Shown: positions 3,879 through 32,971, counted from the stretch's first letter. The stretch: DNA of 33,573 nucleotides from an uncultured virus (IMG/VR IMGVR_UViG_3300023205_000110) (IMGVR_UViG_3300023205_000110); one strand, 5' to 3'. The notes: a model not told the origin generated them from the sequence alone. Made by a program: numbers and translations.

Positions 3879-4301
3879 TTATTTAACTAGTAAACAAACA
3901 ACAAAAGCGATAGCGCAAACAGCACCACCGCTTACCAAATATCTATTCTTACGTTTAATACGTTCAATAGACTTATTTAAATTATCATTTACTTTATTAC
4001 TATTATCAAGATTATTTTGTAAAGTTTCAACTTCTTTATAAAGAGCATTATATTTAATCTTATGGAGATTAATTATACTATCTTGTTCGTTAATAATATC
4101 TTTATAAAGTTTAGCTTTAATAATTTTAGTATTAGCAATCTTAATCATATTAATAGGAACAAGAACAGTTGTATCAGTAGCGTTGACTCCCCGTGGAGGA
4201 TGCACTACATTATCAATCTCACTCTGACACCAACTTCTTGAATAACTCCCAAGTAGCACTGTCATTAAGACTAATAACTTTATCTTCAATATCTTTTTCA
4301 T
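3879..4301 (-). CDS. Spanin-like protein (signal/lipobox-like N-terminus, coiled coil, C-terminal TM helix)
   Basis: Hydrophobic N-terminus followed by Cys, heptad-rich middle, C-terminal YLVSGGAVCAIAFVVCLLVK. Overlaps the 3' end of 4219-4497, next to the endolysin. Confidence 0.55.
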   Translation of the reverse strand: MKKILKIKLLVLMTVLLGSYSRSWCQSEIDNVVHPPRGVNATDTTVLVPINMIKIANTKIIKAKLYKDIINEQDSIINLHKIKYNALYKEVETLQNNLDNSNKVNDNLNKSIERIKRKNRYLVSGGAVCAIAFVVCLLVK

Positions 4302-4497
4302 GTTCTTTAAGTTTATAAACTATACTTTCTCTTTCAGTTATAACTAACTGTATAGAATCAATCCGAACATGATTAATAGCAGTGTCACTTTTATTATATG
4401 AATTGGCTTCTACACTAAAACGACTTATTGATAAATACAGAGTAACACATAAATTAATAATCGCTATTATAAATATTGCTATTAACATCTTCTTCAT
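4219..4497 (-). CDS. Membrane-anchored coiled-coil protein, i-spanin-like
   Basis: N-terminal TM (MLIAIFIIAIINLCVTLYLSI) followed by helical sequence. Immediately downstream of the endolysin. Confidence 0.55.
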   Translation of the reverse strand: MKKMLIAIFIIAIINLCVTLYLSISRFSVEANSYNKSDTAINHVRIDSIQLVITERESIVYKLKEHEKDIEDKVISLNDSATWELFKKLVSE

Positions 4498-4516
4498 AAT
4501 TCTATACAGTATTAAG

Positions 4517-4945
4517 TTAATCTTTTATTTCTATAAGTTTATTAAGCAAATCAAGGTTCCATCTACCAGTTTCTTTAAGTCCAAGAACTCTTTGAGCCAT
4601 CTTGATAGCTGCAACTTGACCACAATTCACGTTAGTATCAAATAATTGTTCAGCAACTCTCTGACTATTAAAATCATCAAGTTCAAATACATCCCAATAA
4701 CCTATTTTATACTTTTCCCAAACAAGTTTCTGAAGCTGAACGTCATTATCAAGCTTAGACTTAAACTCTTTACTACCAACAGTATAATGTTTCTTATAAG
4801 AATCAATCATAGTCCAACCTTGCCAAGTAGGATTATATTTACGACTGATACCTCTATAAGTTTCTCCACCAGCATCATCTTTATCGTTTACATAACCACC
4901 TTCTTTAATAGATAGTTTTTTAAAAGCATCTCCAAAGTAAGCCAT
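4517..4945 (-). CDS. Endolysin, glycoside hydrolase family 108
   Basis: EGGYVNDKDDAGGETYRGIS matches the GH108 EGGY(V/S)NxxxDxGGxTxxGI signature. FDTNVNCG motif also present. Confidence 0.9.
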   Translation of the reverse strand: MAYFGDAFKKLSIKEGGYVNDKDDAGGETYRGISRKYNPTWQGWTMIDSYKKHYTVGSKEFKSKLDNDVQLQKLVWEKYKIGYWDVFELDDFNSQRVAEQLFDTNVNCGQVAAIKMAQRVLGLKETGRWNLDLLNKLIEIKD

Positions 4946-4948
4946 AAT

Positions 4949-5146
4949 TTAATTTATATAAGGATTAGTACAATATCTAAAACAATCAACAGCGTCATAA
5001 TATTCATCTTCATCAAATTCTTTAATTGTAACCCAAAACCAAAGAACTTTAATTTGAACTTTATAAATCACAAATTCAAAGTCATCACCAATATGATGTT
5101 CATCACCAATTAATCTTATATTTTTTCTACGATTAATAATATACAT
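4949..5146 (-). CDS. Hypothetical protein
   Basis: 65-aa ORF packed within 3-4 nt of both neighbours. Confidence 0.65.
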   Translation of the reverse strand: MYIINRRKNIRLIGDEHHIGDDFEFVIYKVQIKVLWFWVTIKEFDEDEYYDAVDCFRYCTNPYIN

Positions 5147-5149
5147 AAC

Positions 5150-5500
5150 TTATTCTTCAAGAGTTCTACGAATCCATGAACGTAAAAATTTGATATTATT
5201 TCCTTTACCAGCAATATCATTATAATATTTAATACGTTCAAGTTTATATTTAGCTATAAAATAATCAGCACTAATAGTAGTATCAGATTTATAAGCATTA
5301 AGAGAATCTTGAGTTCTACGAAGCAATTCTTTAGTTAAAACTAATTCATTAACAGCAGTAGAATCAGTAACAGGAACATAACGAATTTCAGGAACTGGAG
5401 TAATACGTTTAGTACATCCACTAGATAAACAAATAGCAAATATAACTAAAACAATAAATCCAATAATTACTCCAATTAAATTATCTTTATTCAATTTCAT
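5150..5500 (-). CDS. Putative lipoprotein, possibly o-spanin-like
   Basis: Hydrophobic signal ending in the lipobox-like LSSGC. Located in the lysis cassette. Confidence 0.55.
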   Translation of the reverse strand: MKLNKDNLIGVIIGFIVLVIFAICLSSGCTKRITPVPEIRYVPVTDSTAVNELVLTKELLRRTQDSLNAYKSDTTISADYFIAKYKLERIKYYNDIAGKGNNIKFLRSWIRRTLEE

Positions 5501-6504
5501 ATAGCAAGTTTAAATTGAGTTTGAACACCACTAGCTTTAATTTGTAATTCTCTATCTTTAAGAACTTTATTAATATCATCACGTAGATAATTCATAGTAA
5601 AGAATTTAGTAGTTTCAACAGGATTTTCTTTAATATGATAAAGACCATCAGAAAATCTTTTTGGCATACCATATTCATTAAGTTCAAAATCACTATCAAT
5701 ATGACATAACCAAATACCTTTAATAGTTAAACCAAGTATATATTCAACAGCAAAAGCATACATACTAAGTTGAAGATTATATATAGCACCATTACAATTA
5801 GGAAGATGATTAAGAGGAGCTAAAAGTCGTTCATCTTTATCAACCCAAACATTAGTTTGTTGTGCAGGTTTAACTGTTTTATCTTTCTTATAATAACCAC
5901 TACTAAATCTTAATCCATCACGATTTGTTTTCCAATCACCTACAACAGCACAATTAGTATCTTCATTAACTAGAAGAATATCAATAGTTCCACTAATTAA
6001 CCAATCTATAAGAAACATACCAATCTCACTATAAATCTTATATCCTCTTTCAGTGTACATTTTAAACGCATCATAAATAAGAGGATAACGATTATTAGTA
6101 AGTTCAATAAAATCTTTAAGATTAAGTAATTTATAACTAGCACCAAAATTTGGTATATCAGCAATAGTAACCATTACACCATCTTCACGTTTATCAAGAT
6201 AATTAATAGCTTGTTGAAACATAGATGCTCCTTTAACGCCATCTTCAAGACCATTATGAGTATTAGTTCCACGTTCACAAGCTTCTTTAGTAATAGTTGA
6301 CCATTGTTCTTCTAGTTTCTTCTCACTTATTCCTAATTCTTTAGACTTCTTTCTCAACCAATAGTTCTTATCGAACTTTGGAGCATAATTATGAAGGATA
6401 GTAGTAGTTGAAATATAATCATTACCTAGACTATCATTATACTTATGTTCTTCTTCATGAAAAATAAGTCTAATATCATTATATCTTTTATCTTTAAGTT
6501 CCAT
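5497..6504 (-). CDS. PD-(D/E)XK exonuclease family protein
   Basis: FHEEEHKY, ISTTTIL, RGTNTH, SGTIDILL, GDWKTN and YNLQLSMY motifs. Likely start is ATG 6504 (MELKDKRY) rather than the GTG inside the upstream hairpin. Confidence 0.8.
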   Translation of the reverse strand: MELKDKRYNDIRLIFHEEEHKYNDSLGNDYISTTTILHNYAPKFDKNYWLRKKSKELGISEKKLEEQWSTITKEACERGTNTHNGLEDGVKGASMFQQAINYLDKREDGVMVTIADIPNFGASYKLLNLKDFIELTNNRYPLIYDAFKMYTERGYKIYSEIGMFLIDWLISGTIDILLVNEDTNCAVVGDWKTNRDGLRFSSGYYKKDKTVKPAQQTNVWVDKDERLLAPLNHLPNCNGAIYNLQLSMYAFAVEYILGLTIKGIWLCHIDSDFELNEYGMPKRFSDGLYHIKENPVETTKFFTMNYLRDDINKVLKDRELQIKASGVQTQFKLAI

Positions 6505-6601
6505 ATTAATATTATTAAGTTCAACACTAGCTTGGACCCGCTTCGGCACTACGTGCCTACGCTAGACTCCCCGTGGAGGAATGGAGTAGATTAGCATCAG
6601 C

Positions 6602-7201
6602 TTATTCCTCAATCATACTACTAGTAATTTCAACTCCACCTCTACCAGCAACATTCTCTTGTTCATACAGAAGATTTTCTTCAGCTACATTAAGAGCTTT
6701 AATCGTGTTTGGAAACTGATTAGCTAAATCATTAATTTGTTTCATATAACCAATAACAACTGGAACATCTTCTAGACTAGCACCATCAGATAACTTGTCA
6801 TTCAACAATTCATTTAACTTGCTAGCAGCTAGAGCAACATTATGAATACCACGCTTAATATTAAGTACAGCTTCCATACCTGCACCAGCTTTTTGATTAT
6901 AATATCTTTTAATAAGTTTCCAAACAAGAATATCAGGTTGATAATTTTTAGGTAAATCAAAGTTTTCAATAGCTTTCTTAAGAGCTTCTTTTTCACTAAG
7001 ACCTTCTTGTAGACACGGACCTTTAGGGTCACCAAGATAATAAATAACTCCAACTTCTTTAACATACATCTCTTTATTAGGAGATTTATCTCTAGTATAA
7101 AGAAGACTAACATCTCTATCAAGAAGTTGTTTAAGTGTAGGAGCTTTTGGCATACCAGTTTCATCTATGGTCAGCATCCAATCCAATTCCAAACCGTTCA
7201 T
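6602..7201 (-). CDS. Hypothetical phage protein
   Basis: 199-aa ORF in an operon-like arrangement. Confidence 0.75.
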   Translation of the reverse strand: MNGLELDWMLTIDETGMPKAPTLKQLLDRDVSLLYTRDKSPNKEMYVKEVGVIYYLGDPKGPCLQEGLSEKEALKKAIENFDLPKNYQPDILVWKLIKRYYNQKAGAGMEAVLNIKRGIHNVALAASKLNELLNDKLSDGASLEDVPVVIGYMKQINDLANQFPNTIKALNVAEENLLYEQENVAGRGGVEITSSMIEE

Positions 7202-7727: not shown

Positions 7728-7741
7728 AATTGAAAGTTTAA

Positions 7742-7825: not shown

Positions 7826-7844
7826 GATTATTTAGACGAAATGG

Positions 7845-8384: not shown

Positions 8385-8392
8385 AACCTAAA

Positions 8393-8533: not shown

Positions 8534-8550
8534 AACTTAATTGTTTTTAG

Positions 8551-8581: not shown

Positions 8582-8919
8582 AGAAAAACTATTTTTAACA
8601 TTTCAATCGTAGAGGATTATATGATTATAAATATGCAAGTCATACTCCCCGTGGAGGATGGAGATGAGTTAGGCTTAATCATATTAGTATTAATGATATT
8701 AATAGAGATAATGATAATGATTATAGTATTGATTAACTTGATGTGATTGATACTGATTGTATTCGTCCTCTACGGGGAGTTGAGCGGAGAGCGAAGCTCG
8801 GAGCGGGTCACAGCGAATCTATTAATGCTGATTATATTAAATATTATATATAATATATATCTATATAGATACTATTGCTAACTTATAATTACTTGATTAT
8901 CAATAAGTTACAAATACTA

Positions 8920-8990
8920 ATTTATACCATACATGGAATAGATTTCGCTATTTATTTGCTATATTTATACCATACATGGAATAGATTTCG
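8920..8990 (+). repeat. 28-bp perfect direct repeat pair (iteron/operator-like) upstream of the RepL-like gene
   Basis: ATTTATACCATACATGGAATAGATTTCG at 8920-8947 and 8963-8990. Confidence 0.9.
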
Positions 8991-9041
8991 ACATTTCCTA
9001 GAGTAATATATTTTTATGTTAAACTTAATACTATTATTGTT

Positions 9042-9698
9042 ATGACTTTTAAAGAAGATTTTAAACCTACTAAAGTTTATAACAAACTTGTTAATGATGT
9101 TTGTTATAATGCTGATTGCTTAGAAGAATTTGAAAAACAAAGACTTGTTGTTGCTAATCCTTTTAGTTATAATAAAAATACCAGAACTGGTATAGTTGCT
9201 GAATTTGATAATGGTTATCATCTTAGTAAAGAAGTTGGTATTAAACGTAATTTTGTTACTATTAGTATGAGAGTTTGGGATATAATAAGAAAAAATAGAT
9301 ATGCTGTTATTATTTCTTTTATTGGTTATATTGCTGAAAATATTAAATTTAATAGTAATGTTATTTATATTTCTCATGATTTAATTAAAGGTTATGGTTT
9401 AGTTAAGCCTAATTATAGAGATTATTATAACGCTATTGCTTATCTTGAAGATGAAAATATTATTAAAAGAACTAATATTAGAAATATTTATGTTGTTAAT
9501 CCTATTTACATATTTAGAGGTGATGTTAACAAACTTATTAATATTATTAGTGAAGCTAAATTAATAAAAACTTTTGATGATAAAGATAGACTTATAGTTG
9601 ATAAATTTATTTTATTTAAAAATGATACTGATAAAGGTATTGTAATTGCGAATAAAGATTTGTATGCAACTGAAGTTATAGATATTGGTGAGGACTGA
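9042..9698 (+). CDS. RepL-like (plasmid replication initiator family) winged-helix protein
   Basis: HTH-like YYNAIAYLEDENIIKR followed by the RepL-type YVVNPIYIFRG motif. Confidence 0.7.
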   Translation: MTFKEDFKPTKVYNKLVNDVCYNADCLEEFEKQRLVVANPFSYNKNTRTGIVAEFDNGYHLSKEVGIKRNFVTISMRVWDIIRKNRYAVIISFIGYIAENIKFNSNVIYISHDLIKGYGLVKPNYRDYYNAIAYLEDENIIKRTNIRNIYVVNPIYIFRGDVNKLINIISEAKLIKTFDDKDRLIVDKFILFKNDTDKGIVIANKDLYATEVIDIGED

Positions 9699-10016
9699 GT
9701 TAAATATAATAGTAATGATAGTAAGGATAATGACGAAAATACTGAAGATAAAAATTATGAAGATAATAGTAATGTATATTAATGTTTTGATAATGATAGT
9801 AAGAATGTTGAAGATGATAGTAAAAGTGATAGTATTGAAAATAATGTATATTAATGTTTTGGTGAGGCTAGTGAGTATAAGGGGTGGGTCATTAAACTCG
9901 TCTTGACTACCCCCGTCAAGTTCTAGGAGAAAGTAAAGTTCTCGCTCTCATTATCAACATTAAATACATTGAGATTATTCATCTCATTATATTACTAACT
10001 ATTAATACCAATCATT

Positions 10017-10172
10017 ATGAAAACAAACAAACCATTGTTGTTAGTTGCCATCATACTGATGATGCTAGCTATCATACTAGCATTGAAAGTAGAGCCAACT
10101 AGTGATGAACAAATTACTGCTGTTGTATTTGGAATACTATCGGCTATTGTTAGTTATCTTAGTAGAGATTAA
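10017..10172 (+). CDS. Small two-TM membrane protein (51 aa)
   Basis: Read manually as MKTNKPLLLVAIILMMLAIILALKVEPTSDEQITAVVFGILSAIVSYLSRD. Confidence 0.65.
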   Translation: MKTNKPLLLVAIILMMLAIILALKVEPTSDEQITAVVFGILSAIVSYLSRD

Positions 10173-10279
10173 TCTCTACTAGATGATGTTGCTCATTATC
10201 AACATTAAATACTTTGCAGTTGAAACGAAAACAACTGTCAGTAATGCTACTGATTAGCGTAATTAAATACTTAATAGTC

Positions 10280-11062
10280 ATGCCAGACGTTAAAGATTTA
10301 GCACAAGCTGCACAAGGTGCTGCTGCTCCTGAGAGTGTTAATGTAGTTGAACCAACTACTAGTGTTAATCAACCTGTTCAACCTACTGTTGATACAGATA
10401 ACAAACCTGTTCAATCTACTGTTGATACAGATAACCAAAGTTCTGCGCAAGTGGAAACCATTGATGATGTTGTTAGACGCATCTGTACTGATGGTCATAG
10501 TTATGTAATGACTACTGTCATTACTAATATTGATTGTCAAGAACGTACAGGTCGTAATGGCAAGTCTTATCTCAATGCGTTTGTTACTATTGCTAGTCCT
10601 GTCAAAGGTGCTCAAAGTATGCCTGATGGTACACATCGAATGGGTATGCTTGGTGCTGTTCAGATGCCATTCAATCAGATACTGCTTGTAATGCGCAAAG
10701 ACAAGTTCTACGGTAGATTTGTCAACTATGTTGGCGAGGCTGCTGAAGCTGGCTTTGCTAGTATGTATCTGACTGGTGTTGCTGTCAAAGTTCTTTGCCA
10801 GTTTGTACCTGCTGGCGTACAAGACCGTAATCCATTTACTCGTAAAGACAATCTTTACAATGTTGTGGATTATGATAGATATGTATATCATATTGTAGGT
10901 ATCGAACAGCCTGCTGACCCTGTTCTTGTTGGTGCATATAATGTGCTTATCAAGCAGATTATGGAGGACGCTCGTGCTGCCATTGCTGCCAAGCGTGAGG
11001 CTAAAGCTAAAGCGGCTAGTTTTGTTGCTACTGCAATGAGTGATGACGATTTGCCATTCTAA
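10280..11062 (+). CDS. ssb: Single-stranded DNA-binding protein (crAss-type)
   Basis: Acidic C-terminal tail SDDDLPF and a beta-rich core. Likely start is ATG 10280. Contains a 33-bp in-frame tandem duplication at 10371-10435. Confidence 0.75.
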   Translation: MPDVKDLAQAAQGAAAPESVNVVEPTTSVNQPVQPTVDTDNKPVQSTVDTDNQSSAQVETIDDVVRRICTDGHSYVMTTVITNIDCQERTGRNGKSYLNAFVTIASPVKGAQSMPDGTHRMGMLGAVQMPFNQILLVMRKDKFYGRFVNYVGEAAEAGFASMYLTGVAVKVLCQFVPAGVQDRNPFTRKDNLYNVVDYDRYVYHIVGIEQPADPVLVGAYNVLIKQIMEDARAAIAAKREAKAKAASFVATAMSDDDLPF

Positions 11063-11069
11063 TGAACAT

Positions 11070-11099
11070 AGTGCTACTGACCTTCGGGTTGGTAGCACT
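11070..11099 (+). terminator. UUCG-capped hairpin after ssb
   Basis: AGTGCTACTGACC-TTCG-GGTTGGTAGCACT. No clear U-tract, so it may be a stabilising or processing hairpin instead. Confidence 0.55.
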
Positions 11100-11266
11100 G
11101 ATGTTATCAACAATAGTTTTGTTGATGCTGTTGCTAGTGTTCAACATGGAAATGCTCATCATCAACATTAAATAGATTGCAGCAAACGAACTTAACAGTC
11201 TGATAAGACTTATCAACCAAGACCTAGCTGCAAGTTCTGATAAGTCTTATCCTAATATTAAACATC

Positions 11267-11572
11267 ATGAAAGTACATCGTATTATTACTACTATTGAAG
11301 TTGAGAATGATAATTCTATTACTTCTGTTGAACTTACTAAACTTCATCCTACTAGTGATTGTATTCTTCTTGCTATTACTAATATTACTACTAATGGTAA
11401 TGCTGAAGATATAACAAAAATATATGATAGTGTTAATAAGAGCAGACTTGGTATTGCTGGTAAATTAAAAGGTATCGCTCGTATTATTGATAATAGTCTT
11501 GATGGCCATGATTATAATGTAGTTACTGATGATAATTCTACTAATGAAATTAATGATGATTTACTCCTATAA
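11267..11572 (+). CDS. Hypothetical protein
   Basis: 101-aa ORF with an A-rich leader and an acidic tail. Confidence 0.7.
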   Translation: MKVHRIITTIEVENDNSITSVELTKLHPTSDCILLAITNITTNGNAEDITKIYDSVNKSRLGIAGKLKGIARIIDNSLDGHDYNVVTDDNSTNEINDDLLL

Positions 11573-11619
11573 CATTTTGTTATACTGATATTGGTCATGG
11601 AGATTTACTCTCATAACAA

Positions 11620-12060
11620 AAAGTTATAGAGGTGAAATTAGAGGTGACGAGAGGTATTGAATGTGGAGAAAGAGGATATGGAGATGAAAGTGGTGAATGT
11701 GGATTTCGTGGAGAATGAAATGGTGGAGATGGATGTGGTTCAAATAGGGTTAAATTGAGGTTGAATGTGGAGATGAGAGTGAGTTTGGTAGTGGTGAATG
11801 TGGAATTGAATGTGGAGATGGTGATGCTAAAGAGACTAGTCCCACTGCCATTCTTCCTAATCCTCTTCATCCTATTAATAACACTCCTAATAATCAATCT
11901 AAACCTATTGTTCCAACTCCTTCTCTTTCTCTCCTATAACTTCTCTTTCTCTCCTATAACTTCTCGTTATAACTCCATAACTTTTCATTATAACCACTAT
12001 AACTATTAGTTATACTATCATCTTCTCAATCTCATTCATTATAACCTTTGGTTATACCAT
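11620..12060. repeat. Low-complexity purine-rich then pyrimidine-rich tract
   Basis: Several GAATGTGGA copies in 11659-11820, then a CT-rich run with TTCTCTTTCTCTCCTATAAC twice (11921-11960). Confidence 0.75.
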
Positions 12061-13185: not shown

Positions 13186-13350
13186 GTTTGTAGTATAGAC
13201 TCCCCGTAGAGGATGGATAGTGCTGTTGAGCTTGTTAAAGCTAATTCTCATCTGCTTGCCATTTTTATCCATTTTGTTTATTGGGTTTGTTATAGTTAAC
13301 ACGTTGATGATAACTATCCTCTACTCGGAGTTTATTTTATATATAAAGAT

Positions 13351-13530: not shown

Positions 13531-13542
13531 ATAAATAAAATT

Positions 13543-15859: not shown

Positions 15860-15954
15860 TGGCTAGCTTGCTTCCATCCTCTACGGGGAGTCGCCACGGA
15901 GCGTAGCGTAGTGGCTCTACTAATCTTAATGTTATTAATTTAAATACTATTGAT

Positions 15955-18428: not shown

Positions 18429-18972
18429 AACTGTTGACGAATATATTGATTGTGCTAGATGTCCAAATCGTATATTTAATACAGGTAAATATATACAAGG
18501 TGGTAGAGGAAGTATTCATGGAGATGTTGTTTTCCTATTTCCTAGGGGTGATAGAAATTATTGTGAAGGTTATCAATTATTTACTGATATTGGTAATCTT
18601 TATGATGAATATTCTGGACGTAATAATACTGAAGATGTGTATATGACTTATAGTATTAAATGTGCTTGTTCTAATAATTATAATACATATCTTACCGCTA
18701 TTGATAAATGTCGTAATATTCTATGGAAAGAATTAGCTAGAATTAATTATAAGTATCTATTTATATTTGGTGATGCTTATCGTAGTATTAGTGATAATCC
18801 AATTCCTAGATTTATGGCTACTGGTGGTAAGTATATATTTAATAATTATTCTCCTCTTATTAAATTTAAAGATAATAATCTTTATCATGTATTTAAACAA
18901 CGTTTTGCTGATGATGTTAATTGGGTTACTAAAAATAGAAATAATTATGGATTAAATTATATAAATGATTAA
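18418..18972 (+). CDS. Uracil-DNA glycosylase-like protein (family 4 fold, divergent)
   Basis: CARC, GRGSIHGDVVFL, VYMTYSIKC, C..ILWKEL and YLFIFG motifs, but no GEAPG catalytic motif. Confidence 0.65.
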   Translation: MASKTVDEYIDCARCPNRIFNTGKYIQGGRGSIHGDVVFLFPRGDRNYCEGYQLFTDIGNLYDEYSGRNNTEDVYMTYSIKCACSNNYNTYLTAIDKCRNILWKELARINYKYLFIFGDAYRSISDNPIPRFMATGGKYIFNNYSPLIKFKDNNLYHVFKQRFADDVNWVTKNRNNYGLNYIND

Positions 18973-21292
18973 TTGTATAGCTTATGATGTTGAAGTTTTA
19001 AGAAATTTCTTTTCTGTTACTTTTGTTAGTATTAATAGTTATCTTAAAGTATTTAAAGATTGTGTTAATGCTGATAATAAACCTATTCCTTTAGTTCAAA
19101 AACTATCTGTTGAAGAAATTAAGGCTCGTCTTAAAACTGTTGAAAAATATAAGTTTTATATAACAGATATAGATGATAGTCAATTACTTTTTATGATAGG
19201 TTATATTAATAAGACTAGATGTTATAAAGATTCTAATGGAAATATTATTCGTACTGACTTGTATGGATTTAATAATTTTAATTATGATAATCTTATGATT
19301 GCTGCTTTACTTAGTTTTTATATGCGTACGAATAGTACGAAAGAACTTATTAATAAGTTATATGAAACTAGTAAAACTATTATTTCTAGTCAAGATGATA
19401 AAGATAAATTTAGAACTGATTTTTATCTTAATAGTCTTAGAAAATATAAACTACCATTTACAGGTATTGATGTAATGCGTATATTTGCTCTTAATAAAGC
19501 AAGTGTAGTTGTAGATAGTAAAACAGGTGAACGTAAACCTGTTCCTAAAGGTTTAAAGCAAACTTCTATTAATCTTCAATGGTATGAACTTCTAGAATAT
19601 GAACTTCCTGATATTAATGAAGAAGAAGCTGAATTATATAATGAAATTCCTAGTCTTAAAGGAATGAATGTTAAACAGCTTAATAAACTAGTAGATAAAT
19701 GGGATAGATTTATTCTTGATGAATATATTGAACCTATGATGTATTATAATCTTAATGATGTTTTCATTGTAGCTGAAATAGTTCGTCTTTATCCAGAAGA
19801 AATTAAATCTCGTTATGCTATTAGTAAAGCATATGATGTTGATGTTCTTAATTCTAGTCGTAGTAAAACTGCTGATATTCTTTTTGAGAAATTTTATAGT
19901 AAGTTTAGTGGTCTTGCTCCCGAACAATGGAAAGGTAAGAAAACTGAAAGAACTGCTATGAGTTTTAAAAAAGTTATTTTTCCTTTTATTAAATTCAAAA
20001 CTAAACCTATGCAAGATTTTCTTGATGAATGTCTTAAAACTACTATTTATAGAGTTAATAAAGATGCGTTTAGTAAAGAAGTTAAAATTGGAAATGTAAC
20101 TTATACTGTTGCAACTGGAGGTTTACATAGTCAAGATAATCCTGTTGAACTTTGGAGTAGTGGAAGAGAATTATTTCCATCCTCTACGGGGGGTCAACAC
20201 GATGTTCTTAATGACGATGATTATGTTTATATTCATGCTGATATTAATAGTATGTATCCTAGTATTATTGCCGCTCATAAAGTAGCTCCAGCTCATCTTG
20301 ATACTAATGCTTTTTGTAATCTTATTGGTTGGCTTAAAAATAAAAGAGTTGAAGTTAAACACAGCGATGAAGATACTGTTGACGGAATTGATAGAGATAC
20401 TTTAGCTTTAGTTTTAAAGATTGTTATTAATTCTGTTTATGGTAAACTTGGATTTGAAAATGGTAATCTTTATGATAGATTAGCTGTACTTAAAACTACT
20501 ATTAATGGGCAGTTAATGATGCTAATGTTGGTTGAGGAATTAGAGTTACACAATATTCATGTGTTAAGTGCTAATACAGATGGTATTGTTATTAAACTTT
20601 ATAAACGAGATATTGATGTTTATAATCGTATTAAAGATGAGTGGGAACAAACTACTAAACTTAAGTTTGATACTGATTATTATCATTGTCTTGTTAGTAG
20701 AGATATAAATAATTATCTTAGCCAATTTAGAGTTATTAAAAATGGTGTTCATAAACTTAAGCTTGAATCTAAAGGCGCTCTTAATCCTATGATGTATTCT
20801 TTAGATTTAACTAAAGGTTATTCTATGCCTATTGTTGCTCAAGCTATTGAAAACTATTTTCTTAAGAATAAACCTGTAATGGATACTCTTCAAGAAGCTA
20901 CTAATATTCTTGACTTTTGTCTTACTCAAAATGTAGGTAGACAATTTCATGTAGAAGAAACTAAGATTGAAAATGGACAAGTTACTCATGTTGTTTGCCA
21001 AAGATATGTTCGATTTTATGTTTCTAATAGAGGTTATATTATTGAGAAAGTTCATAACGATAATGGTTCTCGTAGTAGAATGGCAGCTGGTTCTGTTGTA
21101 ACAGTTATTAATAGTCTTGATGATAAAGATATTTCTCTTAGAGATATTAATTTTAAATTTTATTATCAAGAAGCTATGAAGATTATTAATCCTATCAAAC
21201 TTAAAATTTCTCCTAAAGGTAAAGGTAAAAGTAAAATTAAAAAATATAGTGGTATGTATAATCCTATTTTTAATGAAGATGATTTTGGATGA
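18965..21292 (+). CDS. polB: Family B DNA polymerase
   Basis: Exonuclease motifs YDVE, FNNFNYD and YNLND. Polymerase motifs DINSMYPS, KIVINSVYGK and NTDG. Confidence 0.95.
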   Translation: MINCIAYDVEVLRNFFSVTFVSINSYLKVFKDCVNADNKPIPLVQKLSVEEIKARLKTVEKYKFYITDIDDSQLLFMIGYINKTRCYKDSNGNIIRTDLYGFNNFNYDNLMIAALLSFYMRTNSTKELINKLYETSKTIISSQDDKDKFRTDFYLNSLRKYKLPFTGIDVMRIFALNKASVVVDSKTGERKPVPKGLKQTSINLQWYELLEYELPDINEEEAELYNEIPSLKGMNVKQLNKLVDKWDRFILDEYIEPMMYYNLNDVFIVAEIVRLYPEEIKSRYAISKAYDVDVLNSSRSKTADILFEKFYSKFSGLAPEQWKGKKTERTAMSFKKVIFPFIKFKTKPMQDFLDECLKTTIYRVNKDAFSKEVKIGNVTYTVATGGLHSQDNPVELWSSGRELFPSSTGGQHDVLNDDDYVYIHADINSMYPSIIAAHKVAPAHLDTNAFCNLIGWLKNKRVEVKHSDEDTVDGIDRDTLALVLKIVINSVYGKLGFENGNLYDRLAVLKTTINGQLMMLMLVEELELHNIHVLSANTDGIVIKLYKRDIDVYNRIKDEWEQTTKLKFDTDYYHCLVSRDINNYLSQFRVIKNGVHKLKLESKGALNPMMYSLDLTKGYSMPIVAQAIENYFLKNKPVMDTLQEATNILDFCLTQNVGRQFHVEETKIENGQVTHVVCQRYVRFYVSNRGYIIEKVHNDNGSRSRMAAGSVVTVINSLDDKDISLRDINFKFYYQEAMKIINPIKLKISPKGKGKSKIKKYSGMYNPIFNEDDFG

Positions 21293-22674
21293 AAAATATA
21301 GTTGAAGAATCATATAGTAAACTTATTAATAAATGGGGTTCTAAAGATTATAAAGGTATTGGAACTATCCATTGTGTTCAACCTCTTGATTATTCTGAAA
21401 TTATAAGTAGAATTATTAGTCTTATGAGAAATAAGAATGATAATATTAAAATACTTATTGTTACAGATAATTGGAAAAGAAGAACAGAAATTGTTGATGG
21501 TCTTAAAAATCATAATATAAATATAGATACTATTAATATTCTTACTCATACTTATGTTAATAGTAGATATAATTATAGTTATGATATTTCTATTGTTGTT
21601 GGAGTTAATGAATGGAATCTTTCTTGTAATACAGTTTTTAATCATGCTAGATTTAAACTTATGATTATAACTAAAGATACTATTGATACTGCCAAGCTAA
21701 AAGAAATTTATACTAATATTCCACCTATTAATGATAATATAAGTTCTAGTGGTATTAATGCTATGCGGGCTTTACTCCCCGTAGAGGAACACAGAGAGCA
21801 GATTTTATTTACTAGTCAAGATGATATTACTAATTATGATAAATATACTGAATTTATTACTCAGACTATTCAAGTATTTGGTAATCTTGATAATATTAAA
21901 TGTGCTCGAAATGGTACTCAAGATGGACGTAGTGCTATTCAATATATTACAGAAATAGCTGAATATAATGGATGGAGTGCTGATATAGATATGACTAATC
22001 CTTTTAGTAAACAAATTGATGAATGTTATAATCCTCTTGTTCTTGCTGAACGAGTTAAGACTTTTTATAATATTGTTCGTGAACGTATGCTTATATGTTC
22101 TGATAATGTTTGTAAGCTAGAAAGAATAGTTGAAATTATTAAAGATAATCCTGATAAACGATTTCTTATTATTAGTAAGAGAGGTGAATATGCTGCTACT
22201 GTAACTAAATATATTAATGATAAATTAGGTGAAATTTGTGGTGATTATCATGATAAAATTGAGGATAAAGTTCTAGTTGATAGTAATGGTATTCCTGTTT
22301 TGTACAAGTCTGGAAGCAAGAAAGGGACTGCTCGTATAATCAAATCTAAGGCTATTTCCACGCTGAATTTGAAGTCTTTTAATGATGGCTTATTAAGAGT
22401 ATTATCTATAAAAAATAATTCAACTGACAGCCTAGAAACAAGCGTAGACGAATGGATTTTAACCTCACCTTTATGTGATACAATAGATGAACTTATTTAT
22501 CGTTATAATAATGTTAATTGTAGTCAATCAAAACTTAAAGTACATAAACTTTATATAGCTGGTACTATTGAGGAAGCAAGTCTTAAAAAGGAAAAGTTAT
22601 CGGCTAACCATGAAGTTATACAGAATGTTAATTCTGATATTAGTGCTCAAAATTTTGATGATATTGTTTGCTAG
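21289..22674 (+). CDS. SF2 helicase-like protein, apparently degenerate
   Basis: Size, position and C-terminal features (KLERIVEII, FLIIS, LKSFNDG, HKLYIAGTIEE) suggest SF2. No Walker A or DExH motif is visible. Confidence 0.6.
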   Translation: MKNIVEESYSKLINKWGSKDYKGIGTIHCVQPLDYSEIISRIISLMRNKNDNIKILIVTDNWKRRTEIVDGLKNHNINIDTINILTHTYVNSRYNYSYDISIVVGVNEWNLSCNTVFNHARFKLMIITKDTIDTAKLKEIYTNIPPINDNISSSGINAMRALLPVEEHREQILFTSQDDITNYDKYTEFITQTIQVFGNLDNIKCARNGTQDGRSAIQYITEIAEYNGWSADIDMTNPFSKQIDECYNPLVLAERVKTFYNIVRERMLICSDNVCKLERIVEIIKDNPDKRFLIISKRGEYAATVTKYINDKLGEICGDYHDKIEDKVLVDSNGIPVLYKSGSKKGTARIIKSKAISTLNLKSFNDGLLRVLSIKNNSTDSLETSVDEWILTSPLCDTIDELIYRYNNVNCSQSKLKVHKLYIAGTIEEASLKKEKLSANHEVIQNVNSDISAQNFDDIVC

Positions 22675-25695: not shown

Positions 25696-25725
25696 AAAAT
25701 TAAAGTTAGTTAAATAGTTGTATGT

Positions 25726-25767
25726 AAGAGGATTGGGTACTATTTTAGTACCTAGTCCTCTTTTTTT
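25726..25767 (+). terminator. Intrinsic terminator
   Basis: AAGAGGATTGGGTACT...AGTACCTAGTCCTCTT followed by a T-run. Confidence 0.8.
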
Positions 25768-25801
25768 ATATGTTCACGATAAAGGTCAAATTAGAAATAT
25801 T

Positions 25802-27013
25802 ATGAAAAGAAATATTAGTAATACTATTTTAACTAAAGATTATATTTTCTCTAAAGTTAGTCAAATTACTATTTTTAGCACTTATACTGGAATTAGTGTT
25901 GAAGATATACAACATTGTATAGATACAGGAGAATTTATATCTAGTCCTTTTCGTGAAGATACTCATCCTAGTTTTGGTTTTAGATATGATAATAGGAATA
26001 AACTTAAAGGAAGAGATTTTGCTGGATATTGGTGGGGAGATTGTATAGATGCTGCTGCAACTGTACTCTCTGAAATTGTTCATAAGCAAATTGATATTTC
26101 TATTAAAAGTCAATTTCTATTTGTTCTTAAACATATTGCTTATACTTTTAGAAATATTATTTATGGACAAGATAAAGATGAAAACAACGATTATAATATT
26201 GCTAGGGCTATTAGTAATGTACGTAATCATAAACCTATTATTGAACTTGTTACTCGTCCGTGGAATAATTTAGATGCTAAGTATTGGGGACAATTTGGTG
26301 TTAATCTTAATTTTCTTAATACTCATTTTGTTTATCCTGTTGACCAATTTTATATTAATCGTTCAACTAATCCTATTCCTAAATATTTTTATGATAAAAA
26401 TAAAACAGATTTATGTTATGGTTACGTTCTTGGGCAAGATAAAAGAGGAATAGTTAATGTTAAACTGTATTTTCCAAATAGGAATAAGAAAACTGAAGTT
26501 AAGTTTATAACTAATAGTAATACTATTGAAGGAGTTATTAATCTTGAATTAGATAATTATGACGTTATTATTATAACTAAATCTACTAAAGATAGATTAA
26601 GTCTTGAATGTTATTTAAAGAGTATTAATCATTCCATCCTCTACGGGGGGTCTACCCTTGAATCTAAAACTATTGGTGTTGTTAATATTCCACATGAAAC
26701 TTATAAACTTCGTCAAATTGAATATGATTGGCTTCGTAGTAAACTTAATCGGAATGGTTTTCTTATTAGTCTTATGGATAATGATAGAACTGGTCTTATG
26801 GAAGCTGTGATTCTTAAGAATGATTATGATATTATACCTATTATTATTCCTAAAGAACTTGGCGTTAAAGATTTTGCCGAACTGAGAAGTAGTTATTCTA
26901 CAAATGTTATTAATGAACTAACTCAACAAGTTATTAAATATATAGAAGATAATTATGGAGAAGAAACTGAATTTACTTGGGATACGGAAGAAAGTAATAC
27001 TTTGCCATACTAA
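25802..27013 (+). CDS. DNA primase (crAss DnaG/TOPRIM type)
   Basis: N-terminal SPFREDTHPSF and RDF motifs. TOPRIM IITKSTKD and MDNDRTG, plus KDFAE. Likely start is ATG 25802. Confidence 0.88.
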   Translation: MKRNISNTILTKDYIFSKVSQITIFSTYTGISVEDIQHCIDTGEFISSPFREDTHPSFGFRYDNRNKLKGRDFAGYWWGDCIDAAATVLSEIVHKQIDISIKSQFLFVLKHIAYTFRNIIYGQDKDENNDYNIARAISNVRNHKPIIELVTRPWNNLDAKYWGQFGVNLNFLNTHFVYPVDQFYINRSTNPIPKYFYDKNKTDLCYGYVLGQDKRGIVNVKLYFPNRNKKTEVKFITNSNTIEGVINLELDNYDVIIITKSTKDRLSLECYLKSINHSILYGGSTLESKTIGVVNIPHETYKLRQIEYDWLRSKLNRNGFLISLMDNDRTGLMEAVILKNDYDIIPIIIPKELGVKDFAELRSSYSTNVINELTQQVIKYIEDNYGEETEFTWDTEESNTLPY

Positions 27014-27940: not shown

Positions 27941-29150
27941 ACTTTATCGTAGAAATAACAATGGTGTGCCTACTGTTTGGTGGGCTGAACTTGACAGTGG
28001 TACTAATAGTATCACTGTTTTTTATGGTCTTATTCGAGGTAATATTCGTAAAGAAGTTTATGCTGTTACTCAAAAAGATGGTCAAAAAGAACTTGAGAGT
28101 AGATATAATGATAAGATTAAAAAAGGATATATATATCTTGATGAACTTTGTGATATGCAGGGTTTACCCCCCGTGGAGGATGGAGATAATGATACTCTAT
28201 TTAATTTTCTAAATACTTATCTGCCTAAAGACCTTAGTAATGGAAATACTAATCTTCTACTTCCAATGCTTGCTAAAACGTATAGTGGTAATGTTTGGAA
28301 AAAAGTCAGTTGTATGTATGGTCAGTATAAGATTAATGGTCTTCGTTGTATTGTTACTGCTTATACTCAAAATGATATGTTTAAACCTGTTAGACTTCGT
28401 TTCCAAAGTCGTGAAGGTCTTATTTGGCATACTCTTGGCTATCTTGAAGATTATCTGCTTGCTACTATTAATACAAATATTATTGACGATATGATTAATG
28501 GATTTGCAGCACTTGATGGTGAAGTTTATCTTCCGGGTTATACTATTAATCAAATTAATCATTTTGTTAAAGATGCTAATTGTCTTGAAAATAAACTTCT
28601 TCAATTTTGGTGTTATGATATTATGATGGAAGGCAATCAAACTCATAGAAATACATATCGTTATCATATTAAAATGCCTACTCGCTTTAATAATATTAAA
28701 GAACATTATAATAATAAAGAACAATTAATTATTCTTCCTAGTGGATATATTACTAATGATAATGAAGCTATTGACGCTAGAAATCATTTTATTAATTTAG
28801 GATTTGAAGGTCTTATACTTCGTAATGCTGAAACTGATTATCAATATGGTAGACGTAGAGCTAATTATATGGAGAAGTTTAAAGATGCTGCTGAGGGAGA
28901 TTTTATAATTCTTGATATTTATAAAGAAAAGAAACGTGATTTACCTATTCTTCTTTGTAAAAATGATATTAATAATGAAAAGTTTGAAACTCGTTTAAGC
29001 ACTAGTCATATTGTTCAACAGGAAGTTTTATTCGATTCTCAATCTTATATTGGTAGAACTGTTCATATAGATTATGGTGAACGAAGTGGTGTTACTAGAG
29101 TTCCATCTCATATTAAAAATGTTGTTATAAATGGAGATACTAGATTATAA
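27933..29150 (+). CDS. lig: ATP-dependent DNA ligase
   Basis: PMLA, motif I YKINGLR, LDGEVY, YDI, EGLILR and KFKD. Likely start is ATG 27933. Confidence 0.92.
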   Translation: MNKLYRRNNNGVPTVWWAELDSGTNSITVFYGLIRGNIRKEVYAVTQKDGQKELESRYNDKIKKGYIYLDELCDMQGLPPVEDGDNDTLFNFLNTYLPKDLSNGNTNLLLPMLAKTYSGNVWKKVSCMYGQYKINGLRCIVTAYTQNDMFKPVRLRFQSREGLIWHTLGYLEDYLLATINTNIIDDMINGFAALDGEVYLPGYTINQINHFVKDANCLENKLLQFWCYDIMMEGNQTHRNTYRYHIKMPTRFNNIKEHYNNKEQLIILPSGYITNDNEAIDARNHFINLGFEGLILRNAETDYQYGRRRANYMEKFKDAAEGDFIILDIYKEKKRDLPILLCKNDINNEKFETRLSTSHIVQQEVLFDSQSYIGRTVHIDYGERSGVTRVPSHIKNVVINGDTRL

Positions 29151-29514: not shown

Positions 29515-29518
29515 GGTG

Positions 29519-29553
29519 AAGCCTAGTACATAATATAGTGTGCTAGGCTTTTC
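29519..29553 (+). terminator. Intrinsic terminator
   Basis: AAGCCTAGTACA...TGTGCTAGGCTT followed by TTCT. Confidence 0.75.
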
Positions 29554-29591
29554 TGTTTGTTAGAAGTCTAAAACTATACAGAACACGCTCG

Positions 29592-29653
29592 TAGATATGA
29601 TTCTTTTTGCCTGTATTCGATTTTATATATCTAAATGATTAATCTATCACGAT
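29592..29653 (+). repeat. Intergenic element copy 2
   Basis: TAGATA..TTCTTTT.GC...ATATAT...TGATTAATCTATCACGAT, colinear with 14881-14942. Confidence 0.7.
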
Positions 29654-29788
29654 AAGATTTGCGTGTCATGTTGAGCCTTAAAATGCGTCATTCTCACTAT
29701 GATATTTAACATTAAATTCAGCATCATTATTACTAGTAAATTCCTATTATATTTTTATATTTGTCTTGATAAACAAAAACAAATTATT

Positions 29789-30535
29789 ATGAGTATTAAT
29801 AAAGTTACTATTGTTGGTATTAAAGGATTTAAAGGAAGCGGTAAAGATACAGTTGCTTCTATGATTAGTTATATCCTTCATGATGGTATTATGAAAGCTA
29901 CTTATGATACTTGGCTTCTTTATCATAAAAATGGGTTTGTTGAAAATGATGAAATAATTATTCATTTTGCTGATAAACTTAAAGATGATATTGCTGCATT
30001 TTGTGGTATTGACCGTAAGCTTCTAGATAGGCAAGATATTAAAGAAGAAAATTATTATAATTTTAAAACTGGTATTGTTTCTACTAATATTAAAGAAGCT
30101 ACTTATGTTGTGGATAAATGGAATGATGCTATATTAAAATATAATGACTTATCTTCATATCTTGTTTTATATAATAATAATGTTAGTATTAAAATTAGAG
30201 TTCTTCTTCAATATTATGGTACTAACATTATTAGAAATCATTTTTGGAGAGAAGCTTTTATTCGTTATACTATTAATAAAGCATTTGATATAAAAAATAG
30301 TAAAGGACAATGTATTATAGCTGATGCTAGATTTGATAATGATGAATGTAAAGCTATTAAAGATTGTGGAGGAATGATAATTAGAGTAGATAGAAAATCT
30401 AGTAATGATAATCATGAAAGTCACGAAAGTGAACAAATAACAATTAATAAAGATGATTATGTTATTGATAATACTGGTACTCTTGTTGGTCTTTTCTATA
30501 AAGTTCTTAAATTTGTAACTGATTATATGGTATGA
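29789..30535 (+). CDS. Deoxynucleoside monophosphate kinase
   Basis: GFKGSGKDT P-loop, FADKLK, RVLLQYYGT, IIADARF and HESE motifs. Likely start is ATG 29789, with a TATATTTG element at 29756. Confidence 0.9.
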   Translation: MSINKVTIVGIKGFKGSGKDTVASMISYILHDGIMKATYDTWLLYHKNGFVENDEIIIHFADKLKDDIAAFCGIDRKLLDRQDIKEENYYNFKTGIVSTNIKEATYVVDKWNDAILKYNDLSSYLVLYNNNVSIKIRVLLQYYGTNIIRNHFWREAFIRYTINKAFDIKNSKGQCIIADARFDNDECKAIKDCGGMIIRVDRKSSNDNHESHESEQITINKDDYVIDNTGTLVGLFYKVLKFVTDYMV

Positions 30536-30915
30536 AATTACATCCTATTTTTGGTATAAATGCTCTTGCTAGAGTTTGTATATGTTGTGGTAAAGTTATT
30601 GGTTATACTCCACTTGGAAATTCTGTTGAAGAAGATGCTAGTAAGAGTAAACAAATAGCTGAGGCTATTGTATGTAAAGAATGTATAGATAAGCTTGATA
30701 GTGAAACTTGCTTTATAGCTTGTGACATGGATAAAGATAATTATATAACTGCTACTTATGATACTTTATGGATTAGAAATAAAGGTCTTAAAGAGTTTTT
30801 TAAAGAGCTTGATTCTATACAGCCTATTAATATTATACCTAAAGAACATTTTTATACTGTGTTTGGAAATGTAGTTAAAGATTTTTATAATAATCAAGAA
30901 AATGAAAATAATTGA
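30532..30915 (+). CDS. Putative zinc-binding protein
   Basis: CICCGK ... CKEC. Confidence 0.7.
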   Translation: MKLHPIFGINALARVCICCGKVIGYTPLGNSVEEDASKSKQIAEAIVCKECIDKLDSETCFIACDMDKDNYITATYDTLWIRNKGLKEFFKELDSIQPINIIPKEHFYTVFGNVVKDFYNNQENENN

Positions 30916-31771
30916 ACCTAAAGTTGAACTTTGGCAACAAGGAGATGATTCTAAAGCTCATGTTGCTAGATGCGCAAGAGTTTGTTATGGTAGAGAAACA
31001 GGTAATGATGAAGCTACTATTAAACGACTTATTAATGATGGACATTGGAGTATGTTTCGTCATGGAACTTATTATATGATTGCTAATGATAGCGATAAAA
31101 CTTTAGAAACTATTATTATTAATTATGCTAATACTATTGGTTTTAGTTATCATTATGAAAAACATGTTTATTATATAACTATTAATGGTAATTGGGTTTT
31201 AGACCATAAAACACAATTTGGTTATATATCTAAATATATTGTTCCTATTGAAGATTTTCGTAATACTGAAATAGGATTTCATATGATGAGATATACTTTT
31301 TGTGTTGATACACAAATTAGTACTTCTCGTGAATTAAACCGCGTTAGTCCTAATAGTATTGCTGAAAAATCAACTAGATATGTATATGAAGATGGAAGTA
31401 TTTGTAGACCTCATTGGATAAGCAAAGAAGAAGCTGAATTATTTAATAATGATAATAATATTATTTTAAATGAAGCTATAAATGCTGATTTAAATGAAGC
31501 TATAAATGTTTATCTTAATGGATGTAAAAGAGATTTTGAAGAATATAAAATTCTTGTAGATAAATATAAAATCCGTCGTCAAGATGCTCGTGGTAAACTT
31601 CCTTTTGATACTGCTACTAGATGTATTTATACATATTCCGTAAGAGAATGGCGTCATATTATTGATTTACGTTATTATGGTACTACTGGTACTCCTCATC
31701 CTAATTGTATTATTATAGCTGGTATGATTAGAAATAATTTAATGGAACTTGGATATGACTTCAGAGATTGA
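30902..31771 (+). CDS. thyX: FAD-dependent thymidylate synthase
   Basis: ARVCY, GHWSMF, RELNR...S...STRY, DARGKLP and WRHIIDLR motifs. Confidence 0.88.
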   Translation: MKIIEPKVELWQQGDDSKAHVARCARVCYGRETGNDEATIKRLINDGHWSMFRHGTYYMIANDSDKTLETIIINYANTIGFSYHYEKHVYYITINGNWVLDHKTQFGYISKYIVPIEDFRNTEIGFHMMRYTFCVDTQISTSRELNRVSPNSIAEKSTRYVYEDGSICRPHWISKEEAELFNNDNNIILNEAINADLNEAINVYLNGCKRDFEEYKILVDKYKIRRQDARGKLPFDTATRCIYTYSVREWRHIIDLRYYGTTGTPHPNCIIIAGMIRNNLMELGYDFRD

Positions 31772-31864
31772 TAAACTTAAACATTTATTGTTGTTCTTAA
31801 AGTAGTTAAAGATGAAGAAATGAGAAATAATAAATAAATTATTAACTATTTAAATATTAAAGTT

Positions 31865-32116
31865 ATGAGAAGAAAATTTTATGGTTTTAATAACCGTTTT
31901 AGAACTACTAAAAATACAGAAGCTATTGTATTTGAAAATGGTGGATTTGTTGGTAATTTTGGTTTAAGTAAAAAACTATGGAAGAAATATACTGAAGCTA
32001 TTTATAAATATAGAACTAATACAGGTAAAATGACTGCTAGTGATTATACTCATTTATTTGGTTATTTAAATCCTTATTATCGTTCTGCTTATAATATACC
32101 TAAACGTAGAAAATAA
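31865..32116 (+). CDS. Small basic hypothetical protein
   Basis: 83 aa with TAATG coupling to the next gene. Confidence 0.7.
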   Translation: MRRKFYGFNNRFRTTKNTEAIVFENGGFVGNFGLSKKLWKKYTEAIYKYRTNTGKMTASDYTHLFGYLNPYYRSAYNIPKRRK

Positions 32117-32895
32117 TGGCAAATATTTATAATATTACTGCTGAACTTGAGGATATATTTCTTGAGTTAGAAGAAAATGGGGGTGAATTAACTCCTGAAC
32201 TTGAAGAACGTCTTGCTATTACACAAGAAAGTCTTAAATCCAAACTTGATAGTTATCGTAAAGCATATACTGTACTTAATCTTGAAGCTGAATCTTGTAA
32301 AAAAGAAGAGCAACGATTAGCTGTTCTTCGTAAAACTAAAGAAAATAATGCTGAAAGACTTAAAGGAGTTATGCTTGATGCTGTTATTGCTTATGGAGAT
32401 TTAGGTAAGTCTGGTAATAAAGTTATTAATTTAGTTGATAGTAAACTCTATACTAAGAATAGTAAATGTGTTGAAATTGATGAAAATCTTAATCAAATAT
32501 TTATTGATTTAGTTCTTGAACATTTACAATCTCTTTGGGATAATGATATGATTGATAGTAATTTCTCATTTAGTAGAGATGTGCTTCTTGAACAAATTAA
32601 TGATAAATTTACTGAAAGATATCCTGAACAATCTACTAGACTTAGAGAAGAAACTGGAGGTTATTTTACGCTTGATGATTTAGATTGTATTAAAGTTAAA
32701 TTTGAGATTGAAAAACCTGTTGGTGATTTAGCTAATAAAATTAATTTTGATTTACTTAATACTTTCTTTAATCATCAACATGAAATGACTAGAAGCAGCA
32801 GTGTTAATAAAACTACTATGAAGAATATTCTTAATGATGGTAGAGATATTAGTATAGCTAAACTTGTTGAAAATACTAGTCTTATTATTAAATAA
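32116..32895 (+). CDS. Siphovirus Gp157-like protein
   Basis: MANIYNIT..., coiled coil KKEEQRL..., and the C-terminal AKLVENTSLIIK typical of Gp157. Confidence 0.75.
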   Translation: MANIYNITAELEDIFLELEENGGELTPELEERLAITQESLKSKLDSYRKAYTVLNLEAESCKKEEQRLAVLRKTKENNAERLKGVMLDAVIAYGDLGKSGNKVINLVDSKLYTKNSKCVEIDENLNQIFIDLVLEHLQSLWDNDMIDSNFSFSRDVLLEQINDKFTERYPEQSTRLREETGGYFTLDDLDCIKVKFEIEKPVGDLANKINFDLLNTFFNHQHEMTRSSSVNKTTMKNILNDGRDISIAKLVENTSLIIK

Positions 32896-32971
32896 TTTGG
32901 TTATACTCCCCGTAGAGGACAGAATTAAGTTCATCCTCCACGGGGAGTCAACACTACTAATCTTGCTAATT

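Follow-up and report, generated by a model that had tools for sequence, protein, structure and literature searches.

A dispersed, strand-specific DNA word with lineage-specific spellings in crAssphage genomes, and its possible role as a phage-read signal

Results

We describe here a short GC-rich DNA word that is dispersed through a 33,573-nt stretch from an uncultured virus (IMGVR_UViG_3300023205_000110; the whole of this stretch is referred to as the window) and that recurs throughout the genomes of related phages. Over a 3.7-kb segment, the window and the prototypical crAssphage, Carjivirus communis BK010471.1, are 98.3% identical; seven further crAssphage records match equally well, and from this sequence match we assign the window to that phage. 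BK010471 (97,065 bases, 29% G+C) serves as the whole-genome reference, its position 8953 corresponding to window position 18965. The window takes in the end of the structural arm (minus-strand genes, to about 8600), the intergenic region from which the arms diverge, and the greater part of the replication arm (plus-strand genes).

The 12-base core of the word, CCCCGTRGAGGA, has 13 matches in the window at up to two mismatches, twelve of them exact and one degenerate (13317-13328), against a mean of 0.31 and a maximum of 3 in shuffled sequences. A longer form, the 19-mer ACYCCCCGTRGAGGATGGA, has ten matches at the same tolerance (six exact, two with one mismatch and two with two) and zero in each of 100 dinucleotide shuffles. 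A preliminary description of this DNA had reported 13 loci in both orientations, and the core count bears this out, the loci at 6569, 21777 and 13317 matching the 19-mer only in part. Seven copies are on the plus strand and six on the minus strand, with distances of 26 to 4860 bases between neighbours; five lie in genes, in four frames, and eight between genes, where they include three inverted pairs (8647/8766, 13202/13317 and 32908/32934).

All five peptides that had been read from the intragenic copies, in four frames, are reproduced in window coordinates. The copy at 4185..4204 (plus strand, exact core) lies within an open reading frame (ORF) on the opposite strand, 3879-4301, and reads HPPRGV, antisense; the earlier 'spanin-like' label for this ORF finds no support, there being no Pfam match. 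The PolB gene contains an antisense copy (20176..20195, minus strand) reading PSSTGG, and the gene for an SNF2-like ATPase (ORF 21289-22674, a SWI2/SNF2 ATPase in the BK010471 annotation) a sense copy (21773..21792, plus strand) reading LPVEE. The remaining two are an antisense copy in the primase gene (26633..26652, minus strand), which reads SILYGG, and a sense copy in the ATP-dependent ligase gene (28165..28184, plus strand), which reads PPVEDG.

Among the intergenic copies, that at 6534..6584 (plus strand, core 6569-6580) has a GC-rich 5' extension of about 35 bases, and a GC-rich 5' extension is also present at 15873..15918 (minus strand, core 15877-15888). One inverted pair is composed of 8643..8662 (plus strand, left half) and 8762..8816 (minus strand, core 8766-8777, right half, again with a GC-rich 5' extension) and occupies the divergent region that separates the gene arms, ahead of the RepL-like gene (9042-9698). 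The sign of the GC skew flips at this same divergent region (8601-9041), which is a plausible candidate origin region. A second pair joins 13198..13217 (plus strand, left half) to a degenerate copy with two mismatches, CCGAGTAGAGGA (13313..13332, minus strand, right half), and the same degenerate copy is found in BK010471. The last is a tight pair, with 32904..32923 (plus strand) as its left arm, 32930..32949 (minus strand) as its right arm, and core starts 26 bases apart.

Across the whole of BK010471 there are 32 copies of the core at up to one mismatch, 18 on the plus and 14 on the minus strand. Of these, 21 are within annotated genes and 11 are in the non-coding 6.6% of the genome, a five-fold intergenic enrichment (P = 4e-6). 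The intragenic copies, ten sense and 11 antisense, use five of the six frames (seven of PSSTGG type, six of LPVED type, four of TPRGG type, and two each of ILYGG and HPLRGV type), and the sixth, unused frame is the one in which the word would place TAG in frame. The word coincides with 14 of the 21 GC-rich islands of the genome, and in seven copies GC-rich sequence continues for about 35 bases beyond the C-run. When folded as DNA these seven give z-scores of -1.5 to +1.4 relative to shuffles, with no palindromic stem or hairpin, and the flanks of the pooled sites have no AT-rich asymmetry in composition.

The copies are spread evenly, strand by strand. On the plus strand of BK010471 neighbours among the 18 copies are separated by 2.1 to 8.4 kb, with a coefficient of variation (CV) of 0.31, and none of 5000 random placements is as even; on the minus strand the CV for the 14 copies is 0.50 (P = 0.005). 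The mean spacing per strand is about one copy per 5-7 kb, with gaps of up to 14 kb. Using a degenerate pattern of the word (see below), 12 of 15 per-strand evenness tests in eight genomes are at P < 0.05, and strand alternation is above that of shuffles in five of seven genomes, these multi-genome tests not all being independent, with two of the relatives, G003 and cr11_1, apparently close kin. Of 35 pairs less than 400 bp apart, 34 consist of one copy on each strand (P = 1e-9). Such equal use of both orientations fits poorly with a packaging site, one of the functions that had been proposed.

Word orientation is independent of the direction of transcription. Pooled intragenic copies are sense in 59 cases and antisense in 78 (P = 0.12), and pooled intergenic copies are sense in 23, antisense in 26 and mixed in 17. 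From the per-strand spacing and these orientations together we conclude that the signal is read with polarity, that each strand is tiled independently, and that the process concerned is something other than mRNA transcription. No separate function need be invoked for the inverted pairs, because the places that tolerate the word (intergenic gaps and variable protein linkers) are few and sites of both strands therefore share them. The near-equality of sense and antisense copies also speaks against an RNA-level site acting in transcripts by processing, binding or structure. Some intergenic copies do follow closely on stop codons, and the two arms of the tight pair (32904-32949) can base-pair as a hairpin; however, folding is no better than for shuffles, and the window has neither an Rfam 15 match at E <=1 nor a tRNA or tmRNA gene, so that we regard an RNA function as very improbable.

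Scanning IMG/VR with the 19-mer identified at least 147 stretches carrying it, mostly crAssphage contigs, some of them divergent. We counted the core at up to one mismatch in relatives, a threshold at which the reversed control never exceeds 1. There are 30 copies in G003 and 35 in G004, each with about 47% protein identity to the reference, 32 in G005, and 30 each in cr11_1 (Delmidovirus) and cr3_1 (Diorhovirus). Within Jahgtovirus, crAss002 has 14 and cr107_1 has nine; Rudgehvirus jaberico (Crudevirinae) has 12 and cr271_1 (Hacihdavirus) 11. A single copy each is present in ctbg_1 (Whopevirus) and cr8_1 (Fohxhuevirus), and there are none in cr127_1 (Crevaviridae) or cr115_1 (Suoliviridae).

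The low counts in some of these genomes arise because the spelling differs by lineage. By k-mer enrichment, each Intestiviridae lineage examined has its own spelling on a shared scheme, a C-run followed by (G/A/T)TA and then by a purine run, and a single degenerate pattern, applied to eight Intestiviridae genomes, captures 25-31 copies in seven of them against 0-1 in the control. The extension to full genomes and relatives that the preliminary description had suggested thus gives about 30 copies per genome in relatives, with both strands used. In the Crevaviridae, cr127_1 (NC_055886) has ten copies, five per strand, of a distinct word of about 34 bases around GCCCTTGTGGCC, including two inverted pairs 172 and 191 bases apart, and this is probably the Crevaviridae counterpart of the signal. 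No GC-rich word was found in the Suoliviridae genome cr115_1 (NC_055898). An AT-rich 11-mer, TTACTAAAGTA, occurs there nine times with 0.9 expected, and it may be an AT-rich spelling of the word or may be unrelated.

Genera that differ at more than half of their residues still have the word at corresponding places in their genes. Protein alignments to BK010471 cover 15 (G003) and 16 (G004) of its 21 intragenic sites, and, counting as retained any site with a word no more than 30 bases from the aligned position, nine of the 15 and eight of the 16 qualify (chance per site 5e-4; P ~1e-26 and ~1e-22). The PolB copy is in the same place in both relatives and the ligase copy is retained in both. At the primase site the frame has switched, with SILYGG in BK010471 and NPLRGV in both G003 and G004 encoded by the same DNA word, and a site in gp50 has switched similarly (TPRGG versus SPVED). 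What is conserved is the DNA, and the peptide is simply what the frame yields. Selection therefore acts at the level of the DNA, as had been proposed along with a genome-wide cis signal, and both proposals are upheld by this retention of sites, two of them in another frame. Within the species, the PolB copy of strain MW067003 is intact in a surrounding segment of 313 bases that is only 74.8% identical. We also note this as a mosaic segment; at their other sites the two Carjivirus strains are 92-99% identical.

How sites are lost bears on a further proposal, that the word is a very small repeat, mobile or selfish, that spreads by insertion, like REP (repetitive extragenic palindromic) elements, miniature inverted-repeat transposable elements, or the GC clusters of AT-rich genomes. 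Its GC-rich composition in an AT-rich genome, its presence at two-thirds of the GC-rich islands, and the existence of some inverted pairs about 100 bp apart would suit such an element, as would presence/absence polymorphism involving a 9-base indel and one BK010471 site that is a 10-residue indel relative to G004. However, as read off the alignments, the 14 cases in which G003 or G004 lacks the word are mostly ungapped substitutions and only one of the 14 is a clean indel of at least six residues. Nor would insertion be expected to produce even spacing on each strand or copies at the same gene positions across genera. The earlier likeness to REP elements is similarly lost, since the extended copies form no hairpin and the Y1/RAYT (REP-associated tyrosine transposase) family PF01797 is found in none of five word-bearing genomes at E <=0.01 (control, six of 14). 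We consider a mobile origin to be scarcely credible.

The word is not enriched in genomes of the Bacteroidaceae, the putative host family. Among these, 81 genomes (of the family of a Bacteroides genome; 1.6 to 4.5 Mb) have 0-8 copies each, 64 places in total versus 33 for the reversed control by manual count, giving a density roughly 1000-fold lower than that in the phage. Two unrelated B. fragilis phages, B40-8 and B124-14, have no copies of the degenerate word, and phages of two Bacteroides species spell the word differently. A host-read signal, whether host Chi, an uptake sequence or a nucleoid-protein site, would share a general resemblance to Chi and uptake sequences, and all of the preceding observations disfavour it, including the host-read form of the Chi-like signal suggested earlier; we see little chance that it is correct. 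Because the spellings follow phage lineage and the Bacteroidaceae genomes lack enrichment, the reader is probably encoded by the phage. A 1.7-Mb bacterial bin without SusD genes (G001) is uninformative as to the host: all 28 of its copies are on a single crAss contig (C7), which is probably a binning artefact rather than a sign of the host, and 39 of 40 searched relatives of the bin have none.

Several replication and recombination genes encode candidate readers. Pfam and PHROGs matches in the window name a GH108 lysozyme, an exonuclease (phrog_298), the RepL-like protein (9042-9698), a superfamily 1 (SF1) helicase, PolB, a DNA primase (25718-27013), the ATP-dependent ligase, a dNMP kinase, ThyX, a Gp157-family protein and a DUF932 protein. 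The primase ORF matches PHROG 12622 ('DNA primase', E = 5e-167) and has no PDB sequence match. It includes a DNDRTG stretch, which we take to be a Toprim-type motif, and no paired-cysteine zinc ribbon is visible. Its structural model is poor (predicted local distance difference test score, pLDDT, 61), with DnaG and T7 primase domains as the best fold matches, both weak (E ~0.02); the N-terminal 120 residues or so are modelled confidently and have no fold match. A Toprim-type primase of this kind is a candidate reader of the word. A second candidate is the giant crAssphage RNA polymerase, which is reported to be active on single-stranded DNA and has no known promoter.

RepL was also considered as the reader and rejected, as tblastn does not detect it in four of nine word-bearing genomes. 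Both RepL-like genes of BK010471 have an inverted word pair 460-640 bases upstream, an arrangement that is inconsistent in G003, G004 and cr11_1.

Two features away from the word are also of note. The G+C content of window positions 10001-12000 is 0.34-0.39 (0.24-0.32 in the rest of the window), and this segment has long ORFs overlapping on opposite strands, 10214-11062 (plus) and 10298-11113 (minus), neither of which has a Pfam or PHROG match. Outside the window, at BK010471 24167-25851, the dUTPase gene is annotated as split by an intron encoding an HNH endonuclease.

Discussion

We consider it very probable that the word is a strand-specific, cis-acting DNA signal, selected genome-wide, with a copy roughly every 5-7 kb of each strand, and read by a phage factor that co-evolves with it. 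A polar signal present on both strands at bounded distances fits three known kinds of process: the priming of DNA synthesis on exposed single strands, the making of nicks, and the instruction, in the manner of Chi, of a helicase-nuclease that tracks along DNA. The cis-signal part of the preliminary description stands, and of the specific acts that it named, priming and binding by a phage protein are both still candidates.

We tentatively propose that the word copies are start sites for primer synthesis on each strand. Each copy would be the start of an RNA primer on a single-stranded template, made by the Toprim-type primase or by the giant RNA polymerase, and whatever the direction of a fork or of strand displacement, there would be a place to start a primer every few kilobases along the exposed strand. 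With the C-run as template the primer would be rich in G, which would keep it annealed in a genome whose G+C content is 29%. We rank priming first because it accounts directly for the per-strand tiling, because such a primer would be stable in so AT-rich a genome, and because the phage has two enzymes that could do the work, a primase and an RNA polymerase that acts on single-stranded DNA. The 3' half of the word may also resemble the start region of T7-group promoters.

Several considerations weigh against this proposal. To our knowledge, DnaG-type primases read trinucleotides rather than sequences of 12-20 bases, and the Okazaki fragments of well-studied phages are shorter than a 5-7 kb spacing. 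Simple bidirectional replication from the divergent region predicts a word on one strand per arm, whereas both strands are occupied on both arms, so that the priming model needs forks travelling in both directions. The primase model is itself poor and its fold matches are weak. Within the species, conservation of the core is not significantly better than that of its surroundings: core mismatches are 10/352 and 8/352 versus 3.45% and 4.24% in the flanks, or 18/704 versus 688/17890 when pooled (P = 0.087). A lack of conservation of the intragenic copies across strains had been named as grounds for abandoning a DNA-level constraint, and on this point the outcome is weak. Moreover, the site at BK010471 68495 is missing from both of the other strains compared, MW067003 (a 9-base indel and substitutions) and MT006214, and individual word sites are thus dispensable. 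Copy number among Carjivirus strains is nonetheless stable at 30 to 32, and stable number together with unconserved single sites is the pattern of a redundant, distributed signal with turnover of its sites.

Alternatively, the word could mark the places where an enzyme of the phage nicks one strand, as happens in T5 and in phiKMV-like and tf-like phages. The nick-associated motif WACTRTGAC of tf/Rembedalsseter, the one published phage analogue that we know of, is kept across 61 Pseudomonas phages of little nucleotide similarity (PMC11780129). The motifs of tf/Rembedalsseter, T5 and phiKMV-like phages resemble the word in being short, asymmetric, strand-specific, dispersed without regard to frame inside and outside genes, and conserved among dissimilar phages (PMC11780129). 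They differ in that the nick-associated motifs are on one strand, with all 13 sites of the described system so placed, and are not evenly spread (PMC11780129), whereas the crAss word is even on each of two strands (18 and 14 copies in BK010471, with similar splits in seven other genomes) and is often in inverted pairs. Pairs 26-264 bases apart would place nicks close together in both strands, which would be hazardous, and no nickase candidate was recognised among the Pfam and PHROG matches. We think nicking rather unlikely.

A Chi-like signal or self-mark read by the phage is a second alternative, in which a phage helicase-nuclease or tracking enzyme would stop or switch at the word and phage DNA would be spared, or repaired from any end, unlike host DNA, which lacks the mark. 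Regular, orientation-dependent sites in both orientations would suit a machine entering from either end, the word is some 1000 times denser in the phage than in the 81 Bacteroidaceae genomes, and BK010471 encodes an SF1 RecD/PIF1-like helicase, the exonuclease (phrog_298), RecT and the Gp157-family protein. However, no RecC- or AddB-like reader was seen, and when BK010471 is compared with two strains, the boundaries of the blocks that diverge lie a median of 1344 bases from a word, with 972 expected by chance, in what is a crude test; only 9.9% of them are within 300 bases of a word versus 17% expected. The same crude test led us to reject the word as a marker of recombination breakpoints, the boundaries being no nearer to it than with random shifts. 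Known Chi sites are 5-8 bases long, are read by the RecBCD or AddAB enzymes of the host, and are enriched in host genomes; they share with the word an orientation dependence, over-representation and, for Chi, reading by a DNA-tracking machine, and the word differs in its 12-20 bases, its lineage specificity and its lack of host enrichment. A phage-read version strikes us as improbable, about as much so as nicking.

It is also conceivable that the word is a double-stranded binding site for a phage regulator or architectural protein, such as a stoperator-like repressor, a RepL-type initiator or an IHF/HU-like protein. A length of 12-20 bp and the lineage spellings would suit protein-DNA recognition, and the intergenic enrichment and the position of the pairs upstream of both RepL-like genes of BK010471 point the same way. 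An orientation-blind reader, however, leaves unexplained why copies avoid each other on the same strand and adjoin on opposite strands, and RepL itself has the patchy detection and inconsistent placement described above. The stoperators of cluster A mycobacteriophages, such as L5, are likewise tens of dispersed asymmetric sites, 13-14 bases long and read by a phage protein, but they are oriented with transcription and are mostly in short intergenic gaps, whereas the word ignores transcription direction. We hold this explanation to be quite unlikely.

Other known systems offer partial likenesses. The uptake sequences of Pasteurellaceae (uptake signal sequences, USS) and Neisseriaceae (DNA uptake sequences, DUS) have a core of about 10-12 bases within an extended consensus, equal use of the strands and of several frames, intergenic enrichment, inverted pairs after genes, and lineage dialects, but they are found in bacteria, in thousands of copies that the competence machinery recognises, whereas the word belongs to a lytic phage, with about 30 copies and spacing rules on each strand. 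REP/REPIN sequences with their RAYT genes have a GTRG tetranucleotide beside GC-rich sequence and some inverted pairs in common with the word, which differs in lacking a palindromic stem and a RAYT gene and in having 21 of 32 copies intragenic rather than extragenic. The primase sites of T7 and the single-strand initiation sites ssiA and ssiB of RSF1010 are strand-specific signals for each template strand, and ssiA/ssiB form an inverted pair; those primase sites are trinucleotides, however, and the ssi are hairpins at an origin, whereas the word has 12-20 bases and tiles the genome. We know of no system that tiles a genome with a word of 12-20 bases. A literature search found no printed description of the word and did not find the core 12-mers in any phage context, all six hits being unrelated (the supplements of the phi14:2 preprint being outside its scope), and the term 'motif' does not occur in PMC8375218.

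These findings concern the most abundant virus known from the human gut, whose mode of replication is essentially unknown. Some 30 copies of the word are retained at a cost in protein sequence, across genera sharing less than half of their residues, and so must serve a central DNA transaction. The word can be used as oligonucleotide bait for its reader and shows where in the genome nicks, primers or bound protein should be sought, with crAss002 (in Bacteroides xylanisolvens) and Rudgehvirus jaberico (in B. cellulosilyticus) as cultured carriers, and its dialects may serve as lineage markers in metagenomes. We raise, as a possibility put forward tentatively, that the word is part of a genome-marking system so far undescribed, in which a phage replication or repair enzyme, most simply a sequence-specific primase or the giant RNA polymerase in the role of primase, is confined in its action to a word found every 5-7 kb on each strand, word and reader co-evolving into lineage dialects. 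If this is true, the replisome of the phage would serve phage DNA exclusively, the word being an inherent tag that tells self from non-self.

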